A DNA stretch of 64,000 nt from an uncultured Eggerthellaceae bacterium (GCA_910588095.1 CAJUQH010000009.1:2606-66605), one strand, 5' to 3'. Positions 1-62,353 are shown, numbered from the stretch's first letter. The notes: a model not told the origin generated them from the letters alone. A program made the numbers and translations.

Positions 1-1101
1 GATGATGGGCTCTTTGCAATCAATCCCTCAACCGTTGTGGTTAGGCTACCGGAAAATGCTGACCAGCATATATGGTCGTTACTAGGGTTAAAAATCCTTC
101 TTGAAGATATAAGCATTGCTACGGCAGCAACCTACGCTGCCAGTTCATCTTTCATCAATGGAGGAGGCGGAGCTCTGTCCGTTTTTCGCCAAGTAGGGCT
201 TGATGCGACAAGCATGACCGCTATTGCAAACGGTTTATCGCAGTGGACGGCATCATGGACGCACGCAACTTCGATATTTGCCGATACTCCCGTTGTGCAC
301 TATTGGCAAGACGATTATTTCTTTGAGGTTAAGGTGTCGAGAGCGCATTATAGCTTTGCTGGTTGGAATGTGAACGGGGCAAAGCTTCCCAACACAACAC
401 CTCTAGTGGCGGGGGCTACTGTTACGGCACTTTGGACGCCATCTGCCTATTCGATTTCTTGTAATTATGGAGGCGGCAGTGTAAGCACGCCCAACAAGAC
501 GAGTTACCACATCGAAACCAGCACGTTCAACCTGATCAATCCGACCAGGCAAGGCTACACCTTCATTGGCTGGTCGGGTACGGGTCTTTCCGGCTCTGCC
601 AACAAGACAGTTACTATCTCGCAGGGCTCGACGGGGAATCGTTCCTATGTGGCTCATTGGGCGCCCGCTTTGTCAGCCGATATACCCGTCGAGGTGGAGG
701 CGCGGGTAGACGTGCTCGGGATGGAAGAACAGGAGCCGGCAGCGGGTTACATCGAGTCGCGTTGCGGCGAGCCGCTTAAGGTGGCCGAGGTGTCCATGGA
801 ACCGCTGACAGGGGCGACCGAGCTGTTCGGCGCAGGCAACGAATCCCAGGTGCAGCTGCAAGCGCTCGCAGGCCAGGGCGCCGTGTGGCAGCCCGGTGGC
901 GCCAACGCGAGCTTCGCGTTCCCGCTGGGGTCTTCCGCGACCGAAGCCGACCCAGCAAAGCTCGCGCCCTTGTGCATGGCGAAGTACGGCGACCGCGTGC
1001 CCGTGAGCTACCGCTTCTCCATCCCGGAGGCGCTGCTCGCGACCTTGACCGAAACCGCCAAGCCAGTCTGCTCGGTGGCCTACACGGTAGCGTTGGCGTG
1101 A
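1..1101 (+). CDS. Secreted repeat surface protein, 5'-truncated by the window edge (Flg_new/Listeria-Bacteroides-type repeat plus family C-terminal domain)
   Basis: The frame of track ORF 37..1101 is stop-free from nt 1. Carries the repeat 'GYTFIGWSGTGLSGSANKTVTISQGSTGNRSYVAHW'. The last ~145 aa (WAPALSADIPVEVEARVDVLG...KPVCSVAYTVALA) closely match the C-termini of 25977..29027 and 45431..48505. Confidence 0.75.
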   Translation, partial: DDGLFAINPSTVVVRLPENADQHIWSLLGLKILLEDISIATAATYAASSSFINGGGGALSVFRQVGLDATSMTAIANGLSQWTASWTHATSIFADTPVVHYWQDDYFFEVKVSRAHYSFAGWNVNGAKLPNTTPLVAGATVTALWTPSAYSISCNYGGGSVSTPNKTSYHIETSTFNLINPTRQGYTFIGWSGTGLSGSANKTVTISQGSTGNRSYVAHWAPALSADIPVEVEARVDVLGMEEQEPAAGYIESRCGEPLKVAEVSMEPLTGATELFGAGNESQVQLQALAGQGAVWQPGGANASFAFPLGSSATEADPAKLAPLCMAKYGDRVPVSYRFSIPEALLATLTETAKPVCSVAYTVALA

Positions 1102-1125: not shown

Positions 1126-1237
1126 GGTTTGCAAAATACCAAAAATGGGCATCAAAACGGTGTGCAAAGTACGCATTTTATCCCCATTAATGGTTTGCAA
1201 AATACGCAAAATTGTGTGAAAATTGGTTTGCAAAATC
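1126..1237. repeat. Four phased copies of GGT(T/G)TGCAAA(A/G)T at exactly 33-bp spacing (starts 1126, 1159, 1192, 1225), upstream of the DUF4143 ATPase
   Basis: Read directly: ggtttgcaaaata / ggtgtgcaaagta / ggtttgcaaaata / ggtttgcaaaatc. The last copy ends 17 nt before ATG 1254. Confidence 0.8.
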
Positions 1238-1253
1238 CATTATAGGGGTGAAT

Positions 1254-2555
1254 ATGCTACGAAGGAAGGCCGAAAAGGCCCTGGCGGAGTGGAAAGCCTC
1301 CGGAGCGAACGAGGCGGTGCTGGTTACGGGCGCTCGCCAGGTGGGGAAGTCTTATCTGGTAGAGGAGTTTGCCCGGCAAAACTATTCCCATGTGGTGAAG
1401 TTCGACCTGATTGACCAGGCCGATGTCCGCGACGCGATGAATGGCGTTCGCAATGCGCAAGAGCTTTTCATGGTGCTATCTGCCTTTGCGGGAACGCAGT
1501 TCGTTCCTGGCGAGACGGCCGTCATCATCGATGAGATTCAAGAATGCGACCAGGCCATCACTCTTATCAAGTATCTTGTCCAACGCCAAGATTTCGACTA
1601 CCTCCTTTCAGGCTCTCTCTTGGGCGTGGAATTGAATGATGTGCGCTCTGTGCCAGTTGGGTATTTGCGCATAGTGGAGATGTTTCCCCTGGATTTCCAG
1701 GAGTTCTGCTGGGCCAATGGGGTAGGTGAAGATGCATGGCTGGAGATAGAGAAGGCATTCCAGCATAGACGGCCGGTGCAGACAGCCGTGCATGAGCGCT
1801 TTCTCACATTGTTCCATTGGTACCTTGTAGTGGGCGGCATGCCACGGGCGGTAGGCGAATTCGTGAAAACAAGCGACATAGCAGCCGTGAACGCGATCCA
1901 GAAAGACATTCTTGCCCTCTACCGCATCGATATCTCAAAGTACGCTGAACGTGGCAAGAGGCTGGCTATCCGCGAGATATTCGACCAGCTGCCTTCGCAG
2001 CTCGATTCCCAATCGAAGCGCTTTAACTTTTCTGCATTGGCCCCACGGGGAACTTACGAGCGTTATACGACGGATTTCGTCTGGATGGTTGATGCGAGTG
2101 TGGTTATCGTGGTGCGCAACGTAAAGGAGCCAAAACGGCCGCTGCGTCTGATGGAAGATAGGAGCTTCTTCAAGCTATTCATGAACGATGTGGGGTTGCT
2201 GAGCGCAGCTTGCGGAATGGATGCAGTTCGTAGTTTGGTCTCGGATGATTTCGCGGTGGCATATGGCGCCATCTACGAGAACGCTGTGGCGCAGGAGCTT
2301 CACGCACACGGCGTGGGTGGCTTTTTCTTCCGCAATCGCAAGCAAGGTGAGATAGATTTTTTGGTGGGGACGTCCTCGAAGGTTCTGCCAATCGAGGTTA
2401 AATCGGGCAAGGATTATAAACGCCACAATGCGCTGCGTAACGTTCTTGCGGTTCCGAATTATGGCATCGATGAGGGGATCGTCTTGTGCGAGAAGAACCT
2501 GCATGTTGATGGGCAGGTTATCTATTGTCCCGCTTACATGGTGGCGCTCATCTAA
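1254..2555 (+). CDS. AAA+ ATPase of the DUF4143 / COG1373 type, with a PD-(D/E)xK-like C-terminal region
   Basis: Walker A 'GARQVGKS', Walker B 'VIIDEIQ', C-terminal 'GEIDFLV...PIEVKSGKDY'. ATG 1254 is preceded by AGGGGTG; the track ORF opens at TTG 1212. Confidence 0.8.
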   Translation: MLRRKAEKALAEWKASGANEAVLVTGARQVGKSYLVEEFARQNYSHVVKFDLIDQADVRDAMNGVRNAQELFMVLSAFAGTQFVPGETAVIIDEIQECDQAITLIKYLVQRQDFDYLLSGSLLGVELNDVRSVPVGYLRIVEMFPLDFQEFCWANGVGEDAWLEIEKAFQHRRPVQTAVHERFLTLFHWYLVVGGMPRAVGEFVKTSDIAAVNAIQKDILALYRIDISKYAERGKRLAIREIFDQLPSQLDSQSKRFNFSALAPRGTYERYTTDFVWMVDASVVIVVRNVKEPKRPLRLMEDRSFFKLFMNDVGLLSAACGMDAVRSLVSDDFAVAYGAIYENAVAQELHAHGVGGFFFRNRKQGEIDFLVGTSSKVLPIEVKSGKDYKRHNALRNVLAVPNYGIDEGIVLCEKNLHVDGQVIYCPAYMVALI

Positions 2556-2582: not shown

Positions 2583-2639
2583 TTGATTGAAGCTGCCAAG
2601 CCCGTCTGCTCGGTGGCTTATACGGTGACGTTGGCGTGA
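2583..2639 (+). pseudogene. Orphan 3' tail (last 18 codons plus stop) of a surface-protein paralogue
   Basis: Translates to LIEAAKPVCSVAYTVTLA*, against ...LTETAKPVCSVAYTVALA* at 1045..1101. No upstream body; it begins 28 nt after the ATPase stop codon. Confidence 0.65.
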
Positions 2640-2658
2640 GCCTTCTACTGCCCATAAG

Positions 2659-2829
2659 CTAGCCCGTCGCATATTCCATGATGCGGCGGGCGGTGTTGCG
2701 GCTGACTTTCGAGACGTCGCCTTTGCCGAGGTAGGCGTAGACGTTCCCCAGGTTGAGACCAAGTGTCTTGCATACGCGGTAAGCCGTCAGTCGCCGGCGC
2801 TCCATGGCATCGAGCGTTGCCTTGCGCAT
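2659..2829 (-). CDS. Small (56 aa) helix-turn-helix DNA-binding protein, divergent from surface-protein locus A
   Basis: MRKATLDAMERRRLTAYRVCKTLGLNLGNVYAYLGKGDVSKVSRNTARRIMEYATG. ATG at 2829. The longer 107-aa track ORF has an implausible N-terminal extension. Confidence 0.5.
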   Translation of the reverse strand: MRKATLDAMERRRLTAYRVCKTLGLNLGNVYAYLGKGDVSKVSRNTARRIMEYATG

Positions 2830-2842
2830 GAGCTCGATGATG

Positions 2843-2852
2843 CCCCCCCCCC
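2843..2852. repeat. C10 (G10 on the - strand) homopolymer
   Basis: Read directly. It sits 13 nt upstream of the HTH ATG on the - strand and directly abuts the TTGCGC -35 of the surface-gene promoter on the + strand. Confidence 0.95.
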
Positions 2853-2882
2853 TTGCGCGTTCGTGCCGAGGCGTGCTAGAGT
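2853..2882 (+). promoter_or_regulatory. Predicted sigma70-type promoter of surface locus A: TTGCGC-N18-TGCTAGAGT (extended -10)
   Basis: The same -35, 18-nt spacer and TGCTAGAGT are found at 44982..45011 upstream of locus C. Confidence 0.5.
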
Positions 2883-2981
2883 TCGTGCCAACCTGAAAGG
2901 GATGCTTATGCGAGGCTCCCGAGTAGGGCGTCTCATCGGGAAAATGGGATTTGCTTTCGAATCGGGAAGGAAGCAACCGCA

Positions 2982-3125
2982 ATGGATAACCTCACGCAGG
3001 CAAGCTGTGCGCTTGCGCGCATCGCGCGCAGGGCGAGCTGCGCCCTCGTATCGGGCCTTCTGGCCGCAAGCCTCGTCCCAGCCCCTGCCTTCGCGCAGAA
3101 TGCTGAGGGGGGGGTAGCCTCCTAA
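2982..3125 (+). other. Detached signal-peptide ORF of surface locus A (47 codons), out of frame with the body
   Basis: MDNLTQASCALARIARRASCALVSGLLAASLVPAPAFAQNAEGGVAS*. RBS GGGAAGGAAG upstream. Runs through the G8 tract and stops at TAA 3123..3125. Confidence 0.75.
3107..3114 (+). repeat. G8 homopolymer at the signal-peptide/mature-protein junction (candidate phase-variation tract)
   Basis: Read directly. The body frame is stop-free from nt 3107 to 6988. Confidence 0.95.
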
Positions 3126-3247
3126 GCCAAAACATATCCGCTGACGGGTCGGATGGCCCTTCAGCTCACGCACAGCCCGGCAATGATGCCGACGTAGACG
3201 GCGCGGGTGCCGTTGCAGCCCAAGCGGCCGACGGTCTCGCAGCGCCG

Positions 3248-6200
3248 GTGCTGGCCGCTTCGATAGCCGTGCCTTACGAAGGGCGCGTGAGCGCCGATAT
3301 GGCGTTGGGGCCAGATGAGTCGGCACCGCTTGCTGTCGGCTCCTTCACCGTCGACGGCCTCTCCTTCCAGGTGCGCGCTGATGGCTCGGCTGAGTTGGTG
3401 GCGGTCAATTCCCCGGCTGACGCTTACCTTGCGCCGGCTCCCTTCAAGATGCCCGGCGGCTCTCCAGTGGTCACGTTGGAAGTGCCCGCTGCGGTGACCT
3501 ACTACGATGTCGAGTACCCAGTGACTGCGCTCGGCGCCCATGCGTTCTACCTATCGGGCGTGCTGCGAGTCGTGCTGCCTGTCTCCATCGCCTCGGTTGA
3601 CGAGCGGGCCTTCCGCTCGTCCGATGTCGCTTGGGTCGATGTCGACCCCCTCAACCTCGCCTATTCCTCTCATGACGGCGTTCTCTACGACGCCGATCTC
3701 GTTAGCCTCCTGCTCATTCCCGGGGGCAGGGGAGGGGCTGTCCGAGTCCCCGACACGGCTACCTCGGTGCCGGCATCTGCGTTCTCGCATTGCGCAGGGG
3801 TCAGCGCCATAGCCGTCGATGAGGGCAGCCCCGCATTCTCCTCCTGGGAAGGACTCCTATACGATGCCGACGGCACGACGCTTTTGCGCGTGCCCGCAGG
3901 CGCAACCGAGGTCACCATCCGCGAGGGCTGCACCTCAATAGCCGCTGGCGCCCTTGAGGCCTGCGCGAAGCTCGAGCGCATCAACGCGCCAGCGAGCGTG
4001 ACTTCGATATCGCCTGATGTGCTTGCTTCTATCCCCACAGTCTCCTTGCCCGTCGCTTCTGCTTTGGATGGCTCACAGTTGGCCACAGAGGATGATGTTC
4101 TGGAGGATGCACACATAGCCCAGACACTTGCATCAGGGCCCGCCGATGGTTCCAGCAGGGCCGATGGGAGCGAGACGGCGTCCAACCCAGAAGCTTTCGA
4201 TGCAGGGCAAGCTCCTTCAGAGACGGCTTCGCCCCAGTCTTCTCGCACTTCTCCTTCCGAAGCCTCCAGCCCTGCCAATGCGCAGCTCGCCTCGCTCGTA
4301 GCGTTGTCTTCCACGGAGGCTGATGCGACGCCTCAGGTTGATGCTGCTTTCATATCGGTGTGGTTGCCAGAAGGGGCGGTTAAAGCGCTATGGGAAACGG
4401 CAGGATTTGCGGTTTCCAAAGAAACGGCAGCCGTGGCTCCCGGTAGTGACTCCCAGGAGGAAGGGCCGACTGCTGCTATCGAGGGGTCAATGGCCTATGC
4501 CGCCCAATACAACCTTACCAGCTATGCCAACGGCACGATGTATATCGGCTCGTGGACATCCTCCGCCTCCCCTTCTGGCTCAATCAACTCTACGCGATCT
4601 GCAGGATCAGGCTATTACTTTCCCGACAAATGGATAGCGTTCAGTGCTTCTAATGCTTGTGTCACCCATTGGAACGATGAATTGCAGCCAGCGCAGCCTT
4701 ATTGGTACACTGGCATCGGGTCGGTGACGGGCGGCGTGAAGTACGCGACGCTCAACGGGGCATCCTTCAGCGGATCGACGTATCTTTCGGGCGCGGCTAC
4801 CTTATGGATGTACAACGAGACTTCGCCTGTCACCATCACATGGAATGCCAGCTGGACAGGGGGCACTGTGTCCCCTGCATCGAGCCGGCCTGCGTTGGGA
4901 AGCACGCTCAACGCTCCGCTCCCCACGAAGACAGGCCATGACTTCACGGGCTGGTATACCGCCTCGACCGGTGGCTCCAAGGTGTGTGGCAGCGCTTCAT
5001 CTGGGGGTACGACGCCAGCAATCCGCAACAGCGCCACCTACTATGCCCGCTTCACGCCCCATACCTACACGGTCACTCTTGATGCTAAGGGGGGTACGGG
5101 TGCTGGCGGCCCGGTCAAGGCGACATACGGCTCGGCGCTTGCAAAGGTGGCAATCCCCCTCAAGGCTGGGGAGGTGTTCGCCGGCTATTACACCGAAGCA
5201 GATGGCGCAGGTACGCGCATCTACGACGAGCAGGGGAATCCTGCGGTCAGCACATGGAGCATCGCCAAGGACACCACCCTGCATGCCCAGTGGACGGCTA
5301 TCGACTTCGATTTGGATTCGGAGCCAAAGGACGAGGACTACGTCGGCTCTTGGAAAGGCGAAAGCCCCGATGTGACCTTAGAGGAGGGTACGGGCGATCA
5401 GGTGATAGCCAATCCCCAGCGTCCGGGCTATGTGTTCATCGGCTGGGTGTCCGACAATGACCCGAACGATAAGGGGCTGGTCTCGTCGGTTGGAGAAGGC
5501 GATGACAAGAAATGGGTCATCGACTCGGATAAGCTGTTGGATTATACGGGAGAGGATGGCCGGGTGCACCTCACCGCTCGCTGGACCTCCGTCATATCGG
5601 TCGACGTGCCGAGCTCCGTCACGTTCTACGCCGACGCGGTCACCCAAGGAAACGAGAGCCGAGAGGGCTTGGCATCGAGCGCCTTCGGCCAGAGCAAGGT
5701 GGCTAGCCAATCCGAGGTCGACCTTCGCATAGTGGGCCTCGAGTCCAAGCAAGTCAAAGGCAACGGCTCGACGAGTCTCGGTGCTTCTGACATACTCAAG
5801 AAGAAGGATGGCGGCACCGTATCCGGCACAGCTGACAAGCTGTTCAGCTTGTACCCGGCAACTGGCGAGCTCAAAGAAGACGACCTCAAGGACCCCGACC
5901 GCACATCTGCCAAGCCAGCCGACGCGGTCGACTTCTCCCTCGATGACATCCTGCTCGAGAAGTCCTTTGCCGCAGACGAGTTCACCATCCCAGCCGGAGA
6001 CACCCTCTCCCTCGGCTACCGCTTGAACCTCCAAGAAACGGGTACCGAGCTCGACTACGACAAGCTCTCCACCCTCAGCGAGGGCGCTTCCGCCTTCATT
6101 GCGAACATCAGCTATTGCTTCGCTGCGGACGCGCTGCCGTCGGACTGGGGCGAGCCGCTCTGGATCGAGAACCCAGACCAATCTACGAACCCAGCTAAGT

Positions 6201-6988
6201 ACCTCTTGCTCAAAGACATCAAGGCAGCCGCTGATGACCTCTCCGCCAACGGAACATCCTCGACCTATTACTCCATGTACAAGAGCATGCTCGACAGCCA
6301 AGTGACGAATAACGGCAACGCGGGGCGAGGTCCTTACTTCCAATTGAAGGTCGGCAACGCTTACATCGACCTGCAGCTTATCGGGATATGCCAAGACACC
6401 AAATCTGCAGGCGGCAAGGCGGGCCTCACGTTCCAGACGAGGGATATCTACGCCTACGGCAGCATCAAGAGCATCGCAGCCGGTGGAGGCGCGTTCAGCA
6501 CCTACATGAACTTCACCAACACCAATGTGGGCGGTTGGGCCTCGTCTGCCATGCACTCTACCCTGATATCCACCTTCTGGAGTACGCTGCCTGTCGAGAC
6601 CCAGGCTGCCATCGTGGGCGTGGACAAGCACCAGCAGCTGCCCTCAGGCACCACGGCCTCCTACTTGCAGAAGACCACGGGTGAGACCGTCTGGCTTCCC
6701 TCCGTGCGTGAGGTCTTCGGGGCGGCTTTCGCCGACTACAACGAATCAGAGGCCTTGACCACCGTAGCTGGCTACGTTCCCTTCCAGTACATGGCCTATC
6801 AGCCCGGCGGCACGTCCACCCCCAACACCCGTGCCATCAAGACCTACAACGGGTCCGCTTGCATTTGGTGGTTGCGTTCGGCTTGTCGGTACAACACCAA
6901 CCTTTTCTGTCTTGTGCACTCGAACGGCGACCGCAATAACATCACTGCGAACAGCACCATTGGGGCGGCCCCCTGCTTCTGCTTATAG
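3248..6988 (+). CDS. Large surface protein body (BspA-type LRR, Flg_new repeats, family beta-rich domain, C-terminal DUF6273-like 'WWLRS' domain). Frameshifted relative to its signal peptide, so the full locus is 2982..6988
   Basis: 1246-aa ORF. LRR_5-like 'YPVTALGAHAFYLSGVLRVVLPVSIASVDERAF...'. Flg_new-like 'GHDFTGWYTASTGG', 'GYVFIGWVS'. C-terminal 'CIWWLRSACRYN'. Confidence 0.8.
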   Translation: MLAASIAVPYEGRVSADMALGPDESAPLAVGSFTVDGLSFQVRADGSAELVAVNSPADAYLAPAPFKMPGGSPVVTLEVPAAVTYYDVEYPVTALGAHAFYLSGVLRVVLPVSIASVDERAFRSSDVAWVDVDPLNLAYSSHDGVLYDADLVSLLLIPGGRGGAVRVPDTATSVPASAFSHCAGVSAIAVDEGSPAFSSWEGLLYDADGTTLLRVPAGATEVTIREGCTSIAAGALEACAKLERINAPASVTSISPDVLASIPTVSLPVASALDGSQLATEDDVLEDAHIAQTLASGPADGSSRADGSETASNPEAFDAGQAPSETASPQSSRTSPSEASSPANAQLASLVALSSTEADATPQVDAAFISVWLPEGAVKALWETAGFAVSKETAAVAPGSDSQEEGPTAAIEGSMAYAAQYNLTSYANGTMYIGSWTSSASPSGSINSTRSAGSGYYFPDKWIAFSASNACVTHWNDELQPAQPYWYTGIGSVTGGVKYATLNGASFSGSTYLSGAATLWMYNETSPVTITWNASWTGGTVSPASSRPALGSTLNAPLPTKTGHDFTGWYTASTGGSKVCGSASSGGTTPAIRNSATYYARFTPHTYTVTLDAKGGTGAGGPVKATYGSALAKVAIPLKAGEVFAGYYTEADGAGTRIYDEQGNPAVSTWSIAKDTTLHAQWTAIDFDLDSEPKDEDYVGSWKGESPDVTLEEGTGDQVIANPQRPGYVFIGWVSDNDPNDKGLVSSVGEGDDKKWVIDSDKLLDYTGEDGRVHLTARWTSVISVDVPSSVTFYADAVTQGNESREGLASSAFGQSKVASQSEVDLRIVGLESKQVKGNGSTSLGASDILKKKDGGTVSGTADKLFSLYPATGELKEDDLKDPDRTSAKPADAVDFSLDDILLEKSFAADEFTIPAGDTLSLGYRLNLQETGTELDYDKLSTLSEGASAFIANISYCFAADALPSDWGEPLWIENPDQSTNPAKYLLLKDIKAAADDLSANGTSSTYYSMYKSMLDSQVTNNGNAGRGPYFQLKVGNAYIDLQLIGICQDTKSAGGKAGLTFQTRDIYAYGSIKSIAAGGGAFSTYMNFTNTNVGGWASSAMHSTLISTFWSTLPVETQAAIVGVDKHQQLPSGTTASYLQKTTGETVWLPSVREVFGAAFADYNESEALTTVAGYVPFQYMAYQPGGTSTPNTRAIKTYNGSACIWWLRSACRYNTNLFCLVHSNGDRNNITANSTIGAAPCFCL

Positions 6989-25976: not shown

Positions 25977-28900
25977 ATGCGAGCACCTGCTGTTTCTTTC
26001 GCACACAAGATCGCTGCTGCCACCCTGGCGGCTTTGCTGACGTTCACCCTCGTGCCTTTCGCCCATGCAGATGGGGAAGGGATTGGGGCCGAGGGGTCCG
26101 AGGGGGCATTCGGCTCAAGGGGTTCCGAAGCGAAGCAAGTACCTTTAGGTGCAACTTCGCTTCAACCCCCATCGGACCCCTCGACTGAGGCTGCTGATCC
26201 TTCCGTCACCCTGAGCGGAACCGCCGAAGGCGGCGAAGTCGAAGGATCCGATACAAAACCACTGACTTTGGCATCGGGGTTGGTCGGCACTCCCTCTAAC
26301 TTCATCAACTCCGACGTTGCCCTCGACAGCGAGCCCGTCATCGGTTCCTTCACGGTCGACGGCCTCACTTTCGCTGTTGCGGAAGGCTCGACCGTAGAGT
26401 TGGTAGGGGTCGCCGGGGCCGAGGGGGCATTCGGCTCAGAGGTTCCAACTTCGCCTCAACCCCCATCGGCCCCGACGCCCGAAGCTGTGAACCTTGTTCT
26501 TCCAGAAACCGTCGCTTACGAGGGCTCGGAATATACCCTCGCCTCCATAGCTCCCTACGCCTTATACCTCTCGGGCGTGACTGACGTCACGTTGCCTGCG
26601 AGCGTATCCGACGTGGACGACCGCGCATTCCGCTCAAGCGATGTGGCGAGCGTCACGGTTGCTGAAGGCAACCCAGCCTATTCCTCTTCCGACGGCGCCT
26701 TGTATGACGCCGACCAACTCAGCCTCTTGCTCATTCCCGAGGGCAAGCAGGGCACTGTCCGCATCCCGAAGACCGCAGAGGTGGCAGAGGCCAGCGTGTT
26801 CTCGCATTGCCCGCTGGCGGATTCCATCTCTGTGGATGCGGGCAGTGCAGCATTCGCCTCGGAGAATGGTCTTTTATACACGTCCGACCTCACGACCCTG
26901 CTCCGTGTACCAGCCGGTGCGACCGAGATAACTATCCGAGAGGGCTGCACGACCATAGCTGCCGGCGCCATGGAAGCTTGTGCTAACCTCACGACCATCA
27001 ACGCACCCGCGACCGTTACTTCAATCAGTCCTGATGTCTTCCACGCGATACCGACTGTGAGTCTGCCGGCTGCTTCTGTCATTCTGAGCGAAGCCGCTGA
27101 AGGCGGCGAAGCCGAAGAGCCCAATGAAAACCAAGCCAGCAAAGTTGGCGACCAACTTACCGCCATGGTCGCTCTGTCCTCGACTGATGATGACCTGTTG
27201 GAGGTTAGACCCTTTGCAATCGAAGTTGAGTTGCCTGAGGGGGTCGACACGGCCGTCTGGCAGCATCGGGAATTTCTTATAAATGAAACCTCTTTTGAAG
27301 ATAATGGACAACCTGTTGAAGCCGCCTTGGAAAGAGAGCTTCAGACATCAGAAACATATGCTGCTGGCACCTATACCCTTATCGTGTACTCGGGTAGCTA
27401 TGGAGGTACCATCAGCGGCTCGGAAGCAGGGTCAGGAAATCCGCTAACAATAACCGGAGTTACGCGCTTCACAGCATACGGGCCAAGTTCTGCTGGAAGG
27501 GGGTCTCTTCAGTATTTAAAAAATGGGTCGCTGTATCAAGTTACCGCAGCGCGGGGCAGCTCTGTTTCTTTGATTGGATGGAACGTAATGGGCGTGGGCT
27601 GGGCTCGGGATTCAGGGGATGTTACGATGCAGTCTCCACAGAATTCCATGGAAGTTACTGTTGCGGCAATTTGGAGTGATTTCACTTATAGGGTGAACTA
27701 TAACCTCAATGGGGGTATCCAAAATTACTGGAATGGGTGGGCCTATCATCCTGGCGAAAGGATAACCTTCGCTACTCCTACTAAGCTGGGTTATGACTTT
27801 GGCGGCTGGTATAACAACGCTGCTCTCTCTGGAAGTCGAATCGAATCAGTGACAAGCGTGGCGGGAGGGTCGCTGTCTCTTTGGGCAAAATGGATCCCCA
27901 AGACTTATCAGTTGAGCTATAGCCTCGACAATGGATCCTGGGTCGGCCCGATTCCCGCAAGAGACACCTACACCATCGAGACGCCTACGTTCGTGCTGCC
28001 GTCTGTGGAGAGGAAAGGCTATGCCTTCTCTGGTTGGTCAGGAACAGGCCTCACCGGTTCTGCCAACAAGACGGTCACCATCGCAAATGGCTCTACCGGT
28101 AATCGCTCCTATACAGCTCACTGGACCCCCAACTCCTATACCGTCCAGTACCGCAACAAAGCAGACACGGCCACTCTGTCTACTGATGCAGGCTTCAAGT
28201 ACGATACGGCAAGAGCTCTTGCAGCCAAGCCGACGAGCGGCGTCAGCGCAGGCTATACCGCAGTGGGCTGGGCAACGGCGAAGGACCAATCGAGCGCGAC
28301 GTATGCGTTTGGCAGCTCTCAGAAGAACCTCGCGACCTCAGGCACGAGGAAGCTCTACCTAGCCGAGAAGGCCAACCCCTACGCCATCGCCTTCGATTCC
28401 CAAGGCGGCCCAGAAGTGCCCTCCATCGGCGCCACCTACGACCAGGACGTGACGCTGCCAGCGCCAGGTGCCCGCAACGGGTACCGGTTCCTAGGATGGA
28501 ACACGAAAGCCGACGGCAGCGGGACGGCCTATCAAGCAGGTGTGGTCCTCGCCAAGCCCAACCTCGCCACGAGCGGCACGGCCACGCTCTTCGCCCAGTG
28601 GGATGCGGTCATATCGGCGGTGGTCCCCCTTGAGGTGCAAGCCCAAGTCGACGTGCTCGGGCTGGAAGCGCCCAAGGAGGCGCAAGGCTGCATCGAGTCG
28701 CGCTGCGGCGAGCCTCTTAAGGTGGCAAGGGTGGACCTCACCCCGCTTGACGGCGCAGCCGAGCTGTTCGGCGAGGGCAACGTATCTGACGTGTTCCTCG
28801 AGGTGCTGGCAGAAGGCAGCACCTCTCCCAACGCCCGCTTCTCCTTGGGCTCTTCCGCAACCGAATCCGACGCATCCAAGCTCCAAGCCTTCACCATGGC

Positions 28901-29027
28901 AAGCTACGGCACGCGGATGCCCATAAGCTACCGGTTCGCCATGCCGTCTGACGTGCAGACCTCGCTTCTCGAGCATGCCGACCCGAAGCCGGTCTGCACG
29001 GTGGCGTATACGGTGGCTTTGGCGTAG
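25977..29027 (+). CDS. Large secreted surface protein, intact (signal peptide, BspA-type LRR, Flg_new repeats, family C-terminal domain)
   Basis: 1016 aa. Signal peptide 'MRAPAVSFAHKIAAATLAALLTFTLVPFAHA'. LRR_5-like 'IAPYALYLSGVTDVTLPASVSDVDDRAF'. Several 'GY.F.GW' Flg_new repeats. C-terminus '...KPVCTVAYTVALA'. Confidence 0.9.
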   Translation: MRAPAVSFAHKIAAATLAALLTFTLVPFAHADGEGIGAEGSEGAFGSRGSEAKQVPLGATSLQPPSDPSTEAADPSVTLSGTAEGGEVEGSDTKPLTLASGLVGTPSNFINSDVALDSEPVIGSFTVDGLTFAVAEGSTVELVGVAGAEGAFGSEVPTSPQPPSAPTPEAVNLVLPETVAYEGSEYTLASIAPYALYLSGVTDVTLPASVSDVDDRAFRSSDVASVTVAEGNPAYSSSDGALYDADQLSLLLIPEGKQGTVRIPKTAEVAEASVFSHCPLADSISVDAGSAAFASENGLLYTSDLTTLLRVPAGATEITIREGCTTIAAGAMEACANLTTINAPATVTSISPDVFHAIPTVSLPAASVILSEAAEGGEAEEPNENQASKVGDQLTAMVALSSTDDDLLEVRPFAIEVELPEGVDTAVWQHREFLINETSFEDNGQPVEAALERELQTSETYAAGTYTLIVYSGSYGGTISGSEAGSGNPLTITGVTRFTAYGPSSAGRGSLQYLKNGSLYQVTAARGSSVSLIGWNVMGVGWARDSGDVTMQSPQNSMEVTVAAIWSDFTYRVNYNLNGGIQNYWNGWAYHPGERITFATPTKLGYDFGGWYNNAALSGSRIESVTSVAGGSLSLWAKWIPKTYQLSYSLDNGSWVGPIPARDTYTIETPTFVLPSVERKGYAFSGWSGTGLTGSANKTVTIANGSTGNRSYTAHWTPNSYTVQYRNKADTATLSTDAGFKYDTARALAAKPTSGVSAGYTAVGWATAKDQSSATYAFGSSQKNLATSGTRKLYLAEKANPYAIAFDSQGGPEVPSIGATYDQDVTLPAPGARNGYRFLGWNTKADGSGTAYQAGVVLAKPNLATSGTATLFAQWDAVISAVVPLEVQAQVDVLGLEAPKEAQGCIESRCGEPLKVARVDLTPLDGAAELFGEGNVSDVFLEVLAEGSTSPNARFSLGSSATESDASKLQAFTMASYGTRMPISYRFAMPSDVQTSLLEHADPKPVCTVAYTVALA

Positions 29028-43597: not shown

Positions 43598-44956
43598 ATG
43601 AAAGGGCTTCCCATGAGAAGGCATATAACTGCGAAGCTCGAAGAGTGGAAGCGCTCGCCGCGGAGGAAGCCGCTGCTGCTTCGGGGAGCTCGGCAAGTAG
43701 GGAAGACCTGGGCTCTCACTGAGTTCGGGCGTGCTTCCTATGAGAACCTGGCTTACTTCAACTTCGACCTCAACGCGGAATACAGGCAGTTCTTTCAGCT
43801 GACCAAAGACCCGCATCGTATCATGGAGAATCTGGCTGCCGCCAGCGCTCAACCTATCTTCCCCGAGAAGACCTTGATCGTGTTCGACGAGGTGCAGGCG
43901 TGTCCCGAGGCCATCGCGTCGCTCAAGTACTTCTGCGAGCAGGCACCGGACTATCACATTGCTTGCGCTGGGTCGCTGCTCGGGGTGGCTCTGTCGCATC
44001 CGGCATCTTTTCCTGTGGGCAAGGTGGACGTGATGGATATGCACCCTATGACCTTCGAGGAGTTCTTGGCTGCAGGCGACGGGGCAATCTTGGCGGCGTA
44101 TCTTAGGGGGGTTGATGCTCTTGAGCCCCTACCTGATGCGTTCTTCAACCCGCTGTTGGAGAAGCTGCGTCTCTACTTCCTGACCGGCGGCATGCCCGAA
44201 GCGGTGCTCGTGTGGCTTGAGACCCGCGATGTGGGGGCGTTGCAAGCCACGCTGAGCAACTTGCTCGACCTTTACGCGCTTGATTTCCAGAAGCACGCGC
44301 CGGAATCGCTTTTCGCGAAGATAGAGCTCGTGTGGCGGTCGATGCCCTCGCAGCTTGCGCGCGAGAACAAGAAGTTCCTCTATAGCTTGGTACGGGAAAG
44401 CGCCCGTGCCCGCGAGTACGAGGATGCTATCGAATGGCTGGTCAAGGCCGAGCTGCTGACCAAGGTGACGCGCTGCGCGAAGCCCGCCCTTCCGCTGAGC
44501 GCCTATGACGAGCCGCAGGCGTTCAAGCTGTACCTGCTCGATGTGGGTCTGCTGCGGCGGTTTTCGTCGTTGGCTCCCTCGGCCATAACGGAGGGCAACC
44601 GCCTGTTCACGGAATTCAAAGGGGCATTGACGGAGAACTTCGTGCTACAGGAGCTGCTGCCTCAGTTCGATGCGCGCCCACGCTACTGGGTTATGGATAA
44701 CCCGCGATACGAAGTGGACTTCATGGTGCAATCGGACAACGACATCGTTCCCATTGAGGTCAAGGCGGGCGAGAACGTGAAGGCGAAAAGCCTACGGAAG
44801 TATCGCGAGAAGTACGAGGCCGCAACGCCGCTGGCGGTGCGCTTCTCGCTGCGCAACCTGACGTGCGAAGGGGGCGTGCTCAATGTGCCGCTTTTCATGG
44901 CTGGCCAAACCGAGCGCTTGCTGCAGCTTGCCAAAGAAGGACCCTGCCGTCGCTAA
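43598..44956 (+). CDS. AAA+ ATPase of the DUF4143 / COG1373 type (second, divergent copy)
   Basis: Walker A 'GARQVGKT', Walker B 'IVFDEVQ', C-terminal 'YEVDFMV...PIEVKAGENVK'. Confidence 0.8.
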   Translation: MKGLPMRRHITAKLEEWKRSPRRKPLLLRGARQVGKTWALTEFGRASYENLAYFNFDLNAEYRQFFQLTKDPHRIMENLAAASAQPIFPEKTLIVFDEVQACPEAIASLKYFCEQAPDYHIACAGSLLGVALSHPASFPVGKVDVMDMHPMTFEEFLAAGDGAILAAYLRGVDALEPLPDAFFNPLLEKLRLYFLTGGMPEAVLVWLETRDVGALQATLSNLLDLYALDFQKHAPESLFAKIELVWRSMPSQLARENKKFLYSLVRESARAREYEDAIEWLVKAELLTKVTRCAKPALPLSAYDEPQAFKLYLLDVGLLRRFSSLAPSAITEGNRLFTEFKGALTENFVLQELLPQFDARPRYWVMDNPRYEVDFMVQSDNDIVPIEVKAGENVKAKSLRKYREKYEAATPLAVRFSLRNLTCEGGVLNVPLFMAGQTERLLQLAKEGPCRR

Positions 44957-44970
44957 GGCTCAGACGCTTG

Positions 44971-44985
44971 ACCAGGCAGGTTTGC
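44971..44985. repeat. Right copy of the 15-bp direct repeat ACCAGGCAGGTTTGC (overlaps the -35 of the locus C promoter)
   Basis: Read directly. Confidence 0.9.
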
Positions 44986-45011
44986 GCTTTCTCTCGAAGG
45001 TGTGCTAGAGT
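44982..45011 (+). promoter_or_regulatory. Predicted promoter of surface locus C: TTGCGC-N18-TGCTAGAGT
   Basis: Same architecture as 2853..2882. Confidence 0.5.
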
Positions 45012-45128
45012 GCGCATCACTTGGCGGCTTCGAGCTTCACCTGTTGCAATGCGAGCGCAGGGGCAGCAAGGACGCTGAGCAAAACGGGAACATACTTTGC
45101 TTTCGCATCGGGAAGGAAGCAAGACGAA

Positions 45129-45257
45129 ATGCGAATCGGTAACGCCTTGCGGCATGCTGCCGCATCATCTTTCGGCATAGCCTTGTCTATCATGTTGGCT
45201 TCAAGCCTGCTGCCCGCTGACGCCTTGGCAGAAGGCGTGGGGGGGGTAGCCCTCTAA
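45129..45257 (+). other. Detached signal-peptide ORF of surface locus C (42 codons), out of frame with the body
   Basis: MRIGNALRHAAASSFGIALSIMLASSLLPADALAEGVGGVAL*. RBS GGGAAGGAAG upstream. Runs through the G8 tract and stops at TAA 45255..45257. Confidence 0.75.
45239..45246 (+). repeat. G8 homopolymer at the signal-peptide/mature-protein junction (candidate phase-variation tract)
   Basis: Read directly. I translated the body frame codon by codon from 45239 to 45431 and found no stop. Confidence 0.95.
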
Positions 45258-45430
45258 GCCAAAGCGAACCAGATCCTGGTTCGGAGGTCCCTTCAGCCTC
45301 TGAAGAAGCTGCGGAAGGCGCCGCTGCGGATGGCGGTGCAGGCGCTGATGCGGAAGGCGGGCCTTCCGTCACCCTGAGCGAAGGGGCCGCAGGCCCCGCA
45401 GTCGAAGAATCCAGTTCAAAACTACAAACC

Positions 45431-48400
45431 TTGGCCTCTGCCCTTGCGGGCAAGCCCGCCGCGTTCGTCAACGCCGATGTCGCCCTCGATGGTGAGCCTA
45501 TTGTGGGCTCCTTCACCGTCGATGGTTTGACCTTCGCGGTCACAGGGGAATCCCACGTCGAGCTCGTCGGGGTTGCCCCTTCCGTCACCTTGAGCGGAGC
45601 TGCCGAAGGCGGCGAAGCCGAAGGGCCCGATGAAGGCCACGCCAGCGAAGCTAGCGTCGCCAACCTCACCCTCCCCGGATCCGTCACCTACTCCGACACT
45701 GACTACGCCCTCGCCTCCATTGGCGCCTACGCGTTCTACCTCTCGGGCGTGGCCGATGTCATGCTGCCCGCAAGCGTGAACGATGTTGATGACCGTGCGT
45801 TCCGCTCGAGCGACGTCGCCAACGTCACCGTCGCCGACGGCAACCCCAGCTTCTCCTCCTACGACGGCGTCCTCTACGACGCCACCCGATCAAGCCTCCT
45901 GCTCATTCCCGGGGGCAGGCAGGGCGCTGTCCGCATCTCCGACAAGGCCGAGGAGGTGGACGCGTCGGCCTTCTCGCATTGTGCTGGCGTGGATTCGATC
46001 TCGGTCGATGCGGGCAGCGCGCACCTCTCCTCCTGGGAAGGACTCCTATACGATGCCGATGGCACGACGCTCCTGCGCGTGCCGGCAGGCGCCACCGACA
46101 TCACCATACGAGAGGGCTGCACGACCATAGCCGCCGGCGCCATGGAGGGCTGCGCGAGCCTTGAGCGCATCAACGCACCATCGACCGTGACCTCCATCAG
46201 CCCGGATGTGTTCCATGCGCTGCCAACAGTGAGCCTGCCAGCCGCCGCTTTTGCAAAGGAGGCAACGCAGCTCACGGCCATGGTTGCCTTGTCCGCTACC
46301 GGGGAGGATTCCCCACGAATAGACCCGAGCACCATTTTCGTCACAGTGCCTTCTGAGGCCAATGCGATGCTATGGCGCAAGGTTGGGCTCGTGCTTGCAT
46401 CAAACGCCTTGGTTGATGCAGATGAGCCAGCTGCCCAATCGCCAGCTCTATTTGGAGCACCGCGTGTTGCCGGCTATGATTCGACTGCGAATTTCAGCAG
46501 TGTTTTGGGTGGTGGAAATGCTCAATGGTCTTTCAATTCCTCTAGTGGCAATCTGACGATTTGCTGCCATGTCATGGGTGGCCGTCCTTCGATCATCGAT
46601 GATCAATTCAAGTACACTGTCGGCTCTGGTGACCGAGTCAATTACTCAGCTGTCCCTTGGTATAGCTTCAAGGATGAGATAAAGAGCATCACATTCATCG
46701 ACTTCGACGCAACGGACACGACGGCATGGTTTGCGGGCTGCCGCAACCTTGAGAGCATAAGGTTCGTTGCGCAGAACACGGCAAAGCCGCCGCTATCGTC
46801 GGTCGTTTCGACATCTCGCATGTTCGAGAGCTGTGGAAAGCTTAAGGCCATTCCCTCGAACTTTACGTTGGAGGCTTCGACGGAGCTCGTGTCGACCAAT
46901 CATATGTTCACCGATTGCGTAAGCTTGTCGGGCAGCATCCCCGCGGGTATGACGCTCACAGCAAGCGGGAAAAAGCTCGTCCAAGTGGCATGCATGTTCG
47001 CCAATTGCGTGAAGCTATCTGGCGAGATTCCTTTTACGCTAGAGAATTATGCTGGCACGGGTTTCGACTATATGTTCGCATCTTGCCGGAAGATAACCAA
47101 CATACCGTCTCGTTTCACGATGCCGTCTGGCGCAACCGTGACATCTGCTTTCAAGGTGACGATGGACGCGGCCGCGATTCGTGCTGGACAAGGCGATGGA
47201 AGCATCGATTTAAACGGCAAGCTGGTGACCACTTATGCGGGAACGAATAGCGTTGTCAAAGGGCTGAACTGGGACCTATGGGAACGGTCGCTTGGAACTC
47301 AGAGATATGAGATTGTGTTCAACACGAACGGGGGAAGCGGGGAATTCTACCAGACAAGGGTGGGCGCCGTTTATGGGTCGCAGCTCCTCTATAGCACTCC
47401 GGTTTACCGTCTGCCCTCTCCCGCGTTGGAGAAGACGGGGTATGGCAATTGCGACGGATGGATTCTCGGCAAAGCCACAGGCGATAAAACCCATGGGCTC
47501 GGCGCGGAGGTCTCTAACCTTACGGCTACGCCGAATGGCACCGTAACGTTCTACGCGCACTATACTCCGAACGACTATGCGATCTCGTTCGATGTCAACG
47601 GAGGCAAGGATGCTCCCAACAACAAGCCGGTCGATGCGACCGCCACATTCGATGCTGCGTTGCCGGCCATCGGCGCCAACAAGCCAGTGCGGGATGGTTA
47701 CGCTTTCAGCGGGTGGTATGACACCAGCGCCGCCACAGGCGGGAACATGTACTACGATGCGGAGAATAGGGCAGTACCGGGGAAGGCTTGGGACAAGGCC
47801 GACAATACGACCCTGTATGCGCGTTGGACGCCCAACAGCTACACCATCGCCTTCGACTCCCAGGGCGGGCCGGAGGTGGCATCCATGCAAGCGACCTATG
47901 ACTCCGATGTGACGCTGCCCCAGCCTGGTGGGCGCGAAGGCTATGCGTTCGGGAGCTGGAATACCGAAGCTGACGGAAGCGGGGCGGCTTATCAAGCCGG
48001 CATCGCTCTTGCGAAGCCCAACTTGACGACAAGCGGCACGGTTCCGCTTTATGCCCAATGGGTCGCGATCGAAGAAGCAGTCGTGCCCCTTGAGGTGACC
48101 GCGCGGGTGGACGTGCTCGGCATCGAGGACCAGACGCCAGCAACGGGCTACATCGAGTCACGCTGCGGCGAGCCGCTGAAGGTGGCCTCTGTTGAGATCA
48201 CCTCGCTGCCTGGCGCGACCGAGCTGTTCGGCGCGGGCAACGAATCCCAAGTGCAGCTTCAAGCGCTCGCAGGGGAAGGCGCCGCATGGCAGCCTGGCGG
48301 TGCCAACGCCAGCTTCTCGTTCCCGCTGGGGGCTTCCGCGACCGAATCGGACGCAGGCAAGCTGGCTGCCCTCACCATGCAAGCCTACGAGGATCGCGTC

Positions 48401-48505
48401 CCGATAAGCTACCGCTTCGCGATACCCGAGGCGCTGCTGTCCAGCCTAGCCGAAACCACCAAGCCTGTCTGCTCGGTGGCCTACACGGTGGCGCTGGTGA
48501 GCTAA
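45431..48505 (+). CDS. Large surface protein body (BspA-type LRR_5, DUF285-type 'MFxxC' repeats, Flg_new repeats, family C-terminal domain). Frameshifted relative to its signal peptide, so the full locus is 45129..48505
   Basis: 1024-aa ORF. 'IGAYAFYLSGVADVMLPASVNDVDDRAF'. 'MFESCGKLKAIPSNF / MFTDCVSLSGSIP / MFANCVKLSGEIP / MFASCRKITNIPSRF'. 'GYAFSGWYD', 'GYAFGSWNT'. C-terminus '...KPVCSVAYTVALVS'. Confidence 0.8.
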   Translation: MASALAGKPAAFVNADVALDGEPIVGSFTVDGLTFAVTGESHVELVGVAPSVTLSGAAEGGEAEGPDEGHASEASVANLTLPGSVTYSDTDYALASIGAYAFYLSGVADVMLPASVNDVDDRAFRSSDVANVTVADGNPSFSSYDGVLYDATRSSLLLIPGGRQGAVRISDKAEEVDASAFSHCAGVDSISVDAGSAHLSSWEGLLYDADGTTLLRVPAGATDITIREGCTTIAAGAMEGCASLERINAPSTVTSISPDVFHALPTVSLPAAAFAKEATQLTAMVALSATGEDSPRIDPSTIFVTVPSEANAMLWRKVGLVLASNALVDADEPAAQSPALFGAPRVAGYDSTANFSSVLGGGNAQWSFNSSSGNLTICCHVMGGRPSIIDDQFKYTVGSGDRVNYSAVPWYSFKDEIKSITFIDFDATDTTAWFAGCRNLESIRFVAQNTAKPPLSSVVSTSRMFESCGKLKAIPSNFTLEASTELVSTNHMFTDCVSLSGSIPAGMTLTASGKKLVQVACMFANCVKLSGEIPFTLENYAGTGFDYMFASCRKITNIPSRFTMPSGATVTSAFKVTMDAAAIRAGQGDGSIDLNGKLVTTYAGTNSVVKGLNWDLWERSLGTQRYEIVFNTNGGSGEFYQTRVGAVYGSQLLYSTPVYRLPSPALEKTGYGNCDGWILGKATGDKTHGLGAEVSNLTATPNGTVTFYAHYTPNDYAISFDVNGGKDAPNNKPVDATATFDAALPAIGANKPVRDGYAFSGWYDTSAATGGNMYYDAENRAVPGKAWDKADNTTLYARWTPNSYTIAFDSQGGPEVASMQATYDSDVTLPQPGGREGYAFGSWNTEADGSGAAYQAGIALAKPNLTTSGTVPLYAQWVAIEEAVVPLEVTARVDVLGIEDQTPATGYIESRCGEPLKVASVEITSLPGATELFGAGNESQVQLQALAGEGAAWQPGGANASFSFPLGASATESDAGKLAALTMQAYEDRVPISYRFAIPEALLSSLAETTKPVCSVAYTVALVS

Positions 48506-61562: not shown

Positions 61563-62351
61563 TTAGAAATTCCGAATCCCTTCAAATGCCGCCCCTAATA
61601 TCAATCCCAGCAAGAAAGTAATGATTCCAAACCACCATCGACCATTAAGCAGCTCATAGATACCCTGAGGATGCAAGCCGTAAACTTCTATTAAAGAGCT
61701 AGCGATTTTCAATCGATTCTCGCAAGCCATGCTTATGATATTGGAAATTTCATTCACTTTTCGAAGCGTGGACTGATGAAGCTTGACATATTCTTGTGCA
61801 TCGAATGCAATGGCCTCTCCTTCTCCTGATAGCAATTCTTTGCGACCCATATCGTTTAGCTCTAAGAGTTTTTGCATGCGGGGATGGCCACCTGCGTATC
61901 CTTCTCCGTAACAATCCTTTAGTACCCGAGCGATATCGATGAGTTTGCTATCATCTATCCTGTGGGGAACGCCGTTTAACACTTCGTAGCGATGGTAAAT
62001 CGCAGGGAAACCATAATTGATGTCTCTCATATTCCAATGAACCCATTTGGATTTTGTAGATTTCTGAATAAAGTCCATAAGCTCATCAAGCATGGCCTTT
62101 TCGAGCTCATCGTATTTATCGCTGATTGCGGCAAGCGGCACTCCCTGTTTTTCGGCAATTTTATGAATCGAAAAGGAGTGCGTTTGACCGGAATCAAGCT
62201 CCCTTACAGCAATAGAAGTAATTCGTGGGGTTCTCCCATCATGAATATCATAGAAGCTTTCGCATGAGTAATGGATTACCAGATAATCTCTTGGCGATTC
62301 TTCAATTTCTTTTAAGGTCTTCCTAGCCTGTTTGTGTCTCTTATAACGCAC
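61563..62351 (-). CDS. Uncharacterised 262-aa protein with a C-terminal TM anchor and a DnaQ/DEDD-exonuclease-like motif pattern (hypothesis). Translationally coupled to the upstream ATPase
   Basis: GTG start 2 nt after the ATPase TAG, with GAGGAA RBS. Motifs 'LVIHYSCESF', 'WVHWNMRDINYGF', 'AIAFDAQEYVKLH'. TM 'WWFGIITFLLGLILGAAF'. Lies in the low-GC island. Confidence 0.6.
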   Translation of the reverse strand: MRYKRHKQARKTLKEIEESPRDYLVIHYSCESFYDIHDGRTPRITSIAVRELDSGQTHSFSIHKIAEKQGVPLAAISDKYDELEKAMLDELMDFIQKSTKSKWVHWNMRDINYGFPAIYHRYEVLNGVPHRIDDSKLIDIARVLKDCYGEGYAGGHPRMQKLLELNDMGRKELLSGEGEAIAFDAQEYVKLHQSTLRKVNEISNIISMACENRLKIASSLIEVYGLHPQGIYELLNGRWWFGIITFLLGLILGAAFEGIRNF

Positions 62352-62353
62352 GT

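Follow-up and report, generated by a model that had tools for sequence, protein, structure and literature searches.

A G8 tract between the signal peptide and the body of a large LRR protein gene is probably a slipped-strand phase-variation switch in an Eggerthellaceae bacterium

In the window, that is, the whole stretch of 64,000 nucleotides from an uncultured Eggerthellaceae bacterium analysed here, a run of eight G residues lies between a signal peptide and the body of a very large leucine-rich repeat (LRR) protein, and the two are in different reading frames. This arrangement raises the question of whether the tract is a slipped-strand ON/OFF switch that is OFF in the window, as proposed by the initial annotation, or whether the gene is dead, wrongly assembled, or read by means of recoding. 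Based on the reading frames, the comparison with public assemblies, and the conservation of the surrounding DNA, we consider that gene A is probably a phase-variable contingency gene controlled by a slipped-strand poly-G switch. Its features are the following (strand in brackets):

2982..3125 (+), signal-peptide ORF of gene A as read with G8, 47 codons plus TAA
3107..3114 (+), G8 tract of gene A, the candidate switch, with alleles G7, G8, and G9
3115..3125 (+), stops for both OFF frames, read from the sequence, within the conserved island G8-TAGCCYCYTAAGCC
3107..6988 (+), body reading frame of protein A (BspA-type LRR, Listeria-Bacteroides repeats, DUF6273)

Inspection of the sequence confirmed exactly eight G's at 3107-3114. 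The ATG at 2982, directly preceded by GGGAAGGAAG, opens a 47-codon ORF (MDNLTQASCALARIARRASCALVSGLLAASLVPAPAFAQNAEGGVAS) whose stop, the TAA at 3123-3125, is reached through the G8 tract. The body lies in the −1 frame, in which the last upstream stop is the TGA at 3104-3106, leaving the frame open from 3107; a start codon is first met at GTG 3248, and from there the frame extends to 6988 (1246 aa). When one G was added to the tract computationally, a single ORF of 1335 aa with zero internal stops was obtained. The three structural claims made earlier for this locus, namely that the tract terminates a 47-codon ORF, that the body is open from 3107 with a GTG as its first start, and that one extra G fuses the signal peptide to the body, were thus borne out. 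Tracts of nine or six G's correspond to the ON frame, and tracts of eight, seven, or ten to OFF: the TAG at 3115-3117, directly after the tract, terminates the frame of G7 and G10, and the TAA at 3123-3125 terminates the G8 frame three codons past the tract. We also observed that a G7 allele brings the ATG inside GAATGCTGA (3100-3102) into the body frame; with this allele, gene callers predict a signal-less protein of 1295 aa (P0096), and hence the annotation depends on the tract length.

The 64-kb window, with a composition of 64.5% G+C, contains three homopolymers of at least eight bases: C10 at 2843-2852, G8 at 3107-3114, and G8 at 45239-45246. Five matches of the 8-mer GGGGGGGG were counted in it, as compared with 5.2 ± 3.0 in dinucleotide shuffles. 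Since a G8 run is not improbable given the composition, the significance of tract A rests on its position and on homology.

The product of gene A belongs to a family that is represented three times in the window. In Pfam searches, protein A matched Flg_new (63.5 bits, cut-off 27), LRR_5 (29.2, cut-off 27.7), and DUF6273 (47.2, cut-off 23.5), the last of these at its C-terminus; its paralogues matched Flg_new and LRR_5 with 74.1 and 54.7 bits (protein B) and 93.4 and 36.7 bits (protein C). PF13306 (BspA-type LRR) and PF09479 (Listeria-Bacteroides repeats) were above the gathering cut-offs in all three. By inspection and hydropathy calculation, the N-terminus of A is Sec-like, with three Arg in the first 20 residues, a hydrophobic core of 12 residues (Kyte-Doolittle mean 2.25), A-F-A before the predicted cleavage site (MDNLTQASCALARIARRASCALVSGLLAASLVPAPAFA/QNAEGGVAS), and no lipobox. 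A search for LPXTG in A, B, and C detected no such motif, and their C-termini are not hydrophobic anchors. The earlier label of surface protein is therefore an assumption for A and B, which carry neither an LPXTG motif nor a C-terminal anchor, and the export and surface location of protein A are predictions from its sequence.

Tract A was compared in 20 public records, the window included. It is G8 in 18, G9 in one, and G7 in one, so that the OFF state prevails (19 of 20), with the caveat that some MAG and ENA records may share source samples. Most of these records were drawn by way of the ON and OFF alleles of a neighbouring paralogue, P8, and were blind to the state of tract A; this blind sample gave G8 in 15 and G9 in one, and the window, L001, and L003 brought the G8 records to 18. 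The G9 allele is found in L163 (ERZ13410432, a metagenome assembly with 5x coverage), where the signal-peptide ATG opens an ORF of 873 uninterrupted codons that reaches the contig end. The G7 allele, to which P0096 (beginning MLRGGNLLSQ) had pointed, was checked in the DNA of L182 (ERZ14231460, 17x coverage), and there the ORF stops at a TAA directly after the tract. In 17 records, among them L163, the flanks of tract A differ from the window by 0-2 substitutions over ~3.3 kb, compared in three stretches of 1513, 254, and up to 1508 nt with the window as the reference. Given that the flanks are nearly invariant and the tract lengths differ, the tracts evolve at a much higher rate than the surrounding DNA. 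Exact copies of the window's OFF-state products were also found on other contigs (P0091, P0090, and P0105), the 1246-aa product P0091 being present on four of them; an exact look-up of the fused proteins of 1335 and 1125 aa in the public collection found neither. The comparison of the tract in other isolates, suggested by the initial annotation and run here on public assemblies, thus revealed lengths varying from G7 to G9, and the presence of these alleles within near-identical flanks supports the proposed slipped-strand switch, OFF in the window.

A different picture had been obtained from the 90%-cluster representatives alone, in which every allele is out of frame and nearly all are G8 (one lineage is G11). 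The resulting idea of an invariant G8, and hence of programmed recoding, was discarded when the cluster members revealed the G9 proteins and the G7 allele.

The neighbouring paralogue and the gene that precedes gene A are located as follows:

37..1101 (+), 3' part of the neighbouring paralogue P8, an LRR / Listeria-Bacteroides-repeat gene (Pfam Flg_new, Flg_new_2; synteny with L003 and L160-L176)
1212..2555 (+), AAA_14/DUF4143 ATPase gene preceding gene A (Pfam PF13173, PF13635; order shared by L003-L006 and L160-L176)

The 5' end of P8 and its own G tract lie just left of the window. In 10 records, which come from several projects, this tract has the G9 length, and at least 12 others carry G8, with identical flanks in both groups. 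The G9 form corresponds to P0053, present on 10 contigs, and the DNA was checked in L152-L166; the ON proteins P0053, P0063, and P0059 read straight through from the signal peptide (..QDFEGGGSLLSQ..). Within a single study (ERZ179856xx), the samples are divided between P8 ON and P8 OFF. The states of the different switches are independent, as in ERZ13410432, in which P8 is ON, A is ON, and B is OFF.

Two further members of the family are found within the window, one with a tract and one that provides a non-switching comparison:

45096..45122 (+), conserved 5'-UTR/RBS motif of gene B, the same as upstream of A
45129..45257 (+), signal-peptide ORF of paralogue B, 42 codons plus TAA (45255-45257)
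45239..45246 (+), G8 tract of paralogue B, OFF, with position and phase as in A
45239..48505 (+), body of paralogue B (BspA LRR and Listeria-Bacteroides repeats; 1125 aa when fused)
25977..29027 (+), paralogue C, of the same family, with an intact signal peptide and tract-less

Tracts A and B are in the same codon phase (xxG GGG GGG Gxx), and the addition of one G to tract B also yields a continuous ORF, of 1125 aa. Sampling by way of the upstream neighbour gene showed that tract B is G8 in all four other sequenced records, and at 16 further places the OFF state was deduced from the same 1024-aa product adjoining the neighbour gene; no length variation of tract B was seen among these ~20 records, all of them OFF. 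There are 12 distinct variants of the upstream ORF of B, and all end in GVGGVAL*. Paralogue C has neither the G tract nor the UTR motif. An ATPase paralogue (43598-44956) that also matches PF13173 and PF13635 precedes gene B, and the ATPase plus the tract-bearing LRR gene looks like a duplicated unit. The ATPase gene was also observed ahead of such LRR genes, B-like ones among them, in L003-L006 and L160-L181.

Homologues of these genes come from Eggerthellaceae MAGs and gut metagenomes. In MAG CANOCK01 (L007-L030), from a more distant species, we counted at least 24 paralogues of the N-terminal LRR domain, and the combination of UTR motif and G tract is present in one of them only, L010, with a G11 tract that would be in frame after the loss of one G or the gain of two; this species was also seen in ERZ778511. 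A profile search of genome contigs with the N-terminal domain, using genome representatives that did not include the window's own species, detected two genomes only.

The region upstream of the tract was examined for conserved elements, which are listed here together with the divergent gene that they adjoin:

2659..2829 (−), small 56-aa ORF divergent from gene A, starting at ATG 2829; a 56-aa gene is called in most related contigs
2843..2852 (no strand assigned), second hypermutable tract, C10 (G10 on the − strand), C8-C10 among records
2853..2882 (+), candidate promoter of gene A, TTGCGC, an 18-nt spacer, and TGcTAGAGT, deduced from conservation
2950..2975 (+), 5'-UTR/RBS motif TTTGCT(N7)CGGGAAGGAAGCA, common to A and B

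Among L001-L031 and the window, the full UTR motif accompanies all of the tract-bearing family genes (11/11) and none of the tract-less paralogues. A scan of metagenomes with this motif recovered at least three family members (L062, L068, and L077) among the 120 matches listed, the other listed matches being unrelated DNA. The same pattern is found in an unrelated sequence that is very common in the human gut (...GGCAAATCGGCGAATCTGAGGTGAAAGCGGCGGCG...), seen in L033, L035, L036, and ~40 other loci. No Rfam family was detected across the whole window, including the conserved 5' UTR, which indicates that this leader is not a known riboswitch or leader. The tract and the next 15 nt form an island that the lineages of A, B, P8, and L068 have all conserved and that contains one stop for each non-productive frame, and the signal-peptide DNA between the UTR and the tract is too diverged to be aligned across these four.

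The candidate promoter sequence TTGCGC-N18-TAGAGT is also present upstream of gene B (44982-45011) and is conserved in L068. A scan of positions 2600-3300 for consensus promoters and terminators returned nothing; the consensus is of the E. coli type, for which the candidate promoter is too weak. The A-type gene of L001 has a different upstream context, and an alignment of L001 2925-3545 with window positions 2640-3260 showed that the similarity to gene A starts at CCCCTTGCGCG, on the border of the C tract and the candidate −35. This suggests that the segment from promoter to gene may have moved or recombined as a unit.

The C tract is located 255 nt upstream of the G8 tract, where it abuts the 5' side of gene A's candidate −35, and lies 13 nt upstream of the ATG of the small ORF at 2829. 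With identical flanks, it is C8 in three records, C9 in 12, and C10 in four, the window carrying C10. The small ORF gave a Pfam match to HTH_26 (E = 0.024, 15.3 bits) that is below the cut-off of 22, and possibly encodes a Cro/C1-like HTH protein; gene callers assign it 56, 76, 91, or 107 aa, varying with the C-tract length. Changes in the C tract may tune transcription or affect the small divergent ORF.

The out-of-frame state of gene A could also be artefactual or terminal. Homopolymers are prone to sequencing error, and if the true tract were G9 the gene would simply be intact; Penno et al. indeed caution that annotated G-tract lengths may be wrong (PMC9187656). We regard such an error as extremely improbable, in view of the finding of G8 at tract A in 17 other records, including several Illumina/SPAdes assemblies and MAGs, the occurrence of the exact 1246-aa OFF product on four other contigs, and the G8 of paralogue B in every sequenced record. 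A G9 tract everywhere, the outcome that the initial annotation associated with an assembly error, is excluded by the allele counts. It is also very unlikely that the frameshift killed gene A and that the remainder is a decaying, fixed pseudogene, as might be supposed because hardly any record has it in frame and because truncated bodies are all that gene callers annotate. The 1246-codon body is free of further stops, and the signal-peptide ORF, the RBS, and the UTR motif are kept. In addition, dN/dS between alleles is ~0.3-0.5, and ORFs of 800-1100 codons remain intact at dS ~1 (B versus the B-like genes in L004 and L006), from which we conclude that these genes are functional and that the body is under purifying selection; the signal-peptide part is also conserved as protein between alleles. 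In-frame G9 alleles, moreover, exist for A and are common for P8. The alternative outcome considered earlier, G8 everywhere with further decay, is excluded by the G7 and G9 alleles and by this purifying selection.

A more elaborate explanation is that G8 is the working form of the gene and that the body is reached at the RNA level, either by −1 frameshifting on G_GGG_GGG or by RNA-polymerase slippage adding a G, in which case 'OFF' would really mean 'low'; such recoding could act alone or on top of a DNA switch. We consider it unlikely. It would fit with G8 being the commonest state (18 of 20 records for A and every B allele) and with the X_XXY_YYZ heptamer, xxG GGG GGG Gxx with the body in the −1 frame, that all G8 lineages keep. 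However, the DNA alleles G7, G8, and G9 at one tract indicate that the frameshift is not the conserved state, as it is in prfB and dnaX, and the out-of-frame state is not universal, since G9 is in frame in A and P8 and paralogue C is tract-less; in addition, the G11 lineage (L010/L077) would need the opposite shift. Nucleotide-level conservation of the 15 nt that follow the tract, not shared by the signal-peptide DNA, could reflect an RNA signal, but the two OFF-frame stops account for this conserved 3' island. Potential RNA structures are also present: the tract of B is immediately preceded by a perfect hairpin of 7 bp (ACGCCUU-GGCAG-AAGGCGU; 45214-45238), and several lineages retain a hairpin ~20 nt 3' of the tract by means of G-U pairs and compensatory changes. 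Nevertheless, the 5' hairpin is not universal, and the 3' one lies at too great a distance to act as a classical −1 stimulator. Folding did not reveal a stimulatory structure 5-9 nt downstream of the tract or a spaced SD-like element, the hairpins being ~20 nt off and that of A weak. The region of the 3' hairpin is coding, and for this reason it is not clean evidence for an RNA element, given that coding constraints confound the covariation test. As to precedents, low-level frameshifting on G runs has been reported for the herpesvirus thymidine kinase (review PMC5009743), and the slippage described for the E. coli and T7 RNA polymerases concerns A/T runs only (PMC6260861). We give only a small chance to the related idea that the dominant G8 'OFF' allele leaks a low amount of full-length protein, the module being a three-level (off/low/high) cassette possibly aided by the flanking hairpins; if true, such a cassette would be maintained and reused across an exported-LRR multigene family in Eggerthellaceae.

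Regarding the hairpins themselves, the one 5' of the G8 of B resembles a terminator stem with G's replacing the U's; L002 has a bulged equivalent, and no clear one was seen in A, L001-488, or L068. The 3' hairpin is located at 45265-45283 in the window, at ~515-535 in L001, and ~20 nt past the tract in L002, L062, and L068. Its variants pair GAACCAG, GAGCCAG, or GAATCAG with CTGGTTC, and a swap of GGCG/CGCC versus GCCG/CGGC was also observed.

The slipped-strand switch remains the explanation that we favour. The features of a contingency locus are present in gene A: a repeat inside an ORF, whose length toggles between a full-length and a truncated product and is polymorphic with near-identical flanks. 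In the model that we propose, the poly-G tract joins a Sec signal peptide to the 1290-residue mature part of the gene A product, and slipped-strand mispairing during replication would alter the tract length and in this way set the reading frame. With G9 (or G6), a secreted BspA-type LRR / Listeria-Bacteroides-repeat protein of 1335 aa would be made (ON), and ON cells would be expected to export protein A. With G8, as in the window, ribosomes would halt at the TAA three codons past the tract, and with G7 or G10 at the TAG directly after it; these OFF states would yield only a signal-peptide stub of 44-47 residues, and the body, devoid of an RBS-linked start or an export signal, would give no functional product. 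Several paralogues, among them B and the P8 gene beside the window, would carry the same module, in which a candidate promoter and the conserved UTR/RBS are followed by a signal peptide of divergent sequence, the G tract, and a stop for each OFF frame. Independent switching of these paralogues could generate a combinatorial repertoire of large exported proteins in the population. In this model, the length changes would arise within clones by replication slippage, reversibly and at high frequency; nonetheless, switching may be slow, considering that a G8 tract is short compared with the G9-G13 tracts of Bifidobacterium.

Eggerthellaceae are common gut bacteria that affect drug and diet metabolism, and to our knowledge little has been established about the ways in which they change what they present to the host, phages, and other microbes. 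Our results suggest that these bacteria use poly-G/C contingency switches on one family of very large LRR proteins that are predicted to be exported. One tract in a promoter region and at least three in coding sequence are located in the window or just beside it, and tract A, tract P8, and the C tract vary between near-identical strains. Automated annotation renders such genes as truncated, signal-less proteins or as pseudogenes, and the tract length must be read in strain-level comparisons and in proteomics. The G9 and G8 alleles would provide defined ON and OFF genotypes for probing the function of the protein. As a side observation, the right end of the window (62001-64000) has a G+C content of 41%, versus 57-73% elsewhere, and contains ORFs at 61563-62351 and 62354-63826, both on the − strand; it is possibly foreign DNA.

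The initial annotation compared this architecture with the homopolymer contingency loci of Neisseria, Haemophilus, Campylobacter, and Helicobacter and considered it uncharacterised for high-GC Gram-positive anaerobes, a statement that is out of date, given that the same architecture is known in Bifidobacterium breve (PMC9187656). In strain UCC2003, the pilus genes bbr_0113 and bbr_1889 have a Sec signal separated from an LPXTG body by G11 or G10 (Penno et al. 2022, PMC9187656). There, mutants with the tract in frame produce pili, and Maximum Depth Sequencing detected a mixture of tract lengths. The reference state is OFF, enrichment of ON was seen in mice, and the orthologous tracts of Bifidobacterium strains measure between G8 and G13 (PMC9187656). 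Both organisms are actinobacterial gut anaerobes in which a G tract lies between a Sec-signal ORF and the large body ORF of an exported protein; they share an OFF reference state, strain-to-strain differences in tract length, and at least two loci per genome, allowing combinatorial states. The OFF dominance found here fits that precedent, with its OFF reference states and its enrichment of ON in the gut. In contrast, the B. breve proteins are LPXTG pilins heading a pilus/sortase operon, whereas those described here have BspA-type LRR and Listeria-Bacteroides repeats without LPXTG; the tracts are G9-G13 there and G7-G9 here (G11 in one related species); and the productive change is −1 G in B. 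breve but +1 G here. Switching, in-vivo enrichment, and pili were demonstrated experimentally in B. breve, whereas the switch presented here is predicted from sequence comparison.

Other systems resemble this one in part. According to the available text of a preprint on Gardnerella, these genomes have ~20 poly-G/C tracts of ~10 bp on average, ~70% of them in putative promoters and the remaining ones in predicted surface-protein ORFs, including InlB B-repeat proteins, with lengths that vary between colony variants (bioRxiv 10.1101/2023.01.13.523976). Like the Eggerthellaceae, Gardnerella is a mucosal member of the Actinomycetota, and the InlB B-repeat is the repeat family of Flg_new/Flg_new_2 found here; it differs in belonging to the Bifidobacteriaceae and in that a tract between signal peptide and body is not among the positions reported in the available part of the preprint. 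The preprint cites Kurukulasuriya et al. 2021 on nanH3. In the classical loci of Neisseria, Haemophilus, Campylobacter, and Helicobacter, the length of an intragenic poly-G tract sets the frame of surface or host-interaction proteins. Examples of such poly-G loci are hmbR/hpuAB and pgtA (PMC3786947, PMC2193922). ON and OFF alleles occur there, as here, among closely related isolates; the differences are that the bacteria are Gram-negative pathogens, that the tract is usually in the mature coding region or the promoter and not at the signal/body junction, and that ON and OFF are both common there, whereas OFF predominates here. In Mycobacterium tuberculosis, a 7C tract of glpK undergoes homopolymer phase variation (PMC10334774, bioRxiv 10.1101/717272). 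This is also a high-GC actinomycete with short (7-8 nt) G/C tracts and reversible frameshifts, but it is an aerobic pathogen in which metabolic and drug-tolerance genes, and not an exported-protein family, are affected. The BspA-like LRR proteins (PF13306) with PF09479 repeats are related to A, B, and C by their family matches, a likeness that describes the fold alone and says nothing on the switch.

In open-access text, we found no literature on such a switch in Eggerthellaceae. The mechanism is not new, and what is described here extends the Bifidobacterium mechanism to a second actinobacterial class. The novelty lies in the taxon, Eggerthellaceae of the class Coriobacteriia; in the protein family, which combines BspA-LRR and Listeria-Bacteroides repeats and lacks LPXTG; in the shortness of the tract and its +1 direction; in the reuse, across paralogues, of a conserved module of UTR, tract, and double stop; and in the polymorphic C tract that is linked to it within the divergent promoter region.
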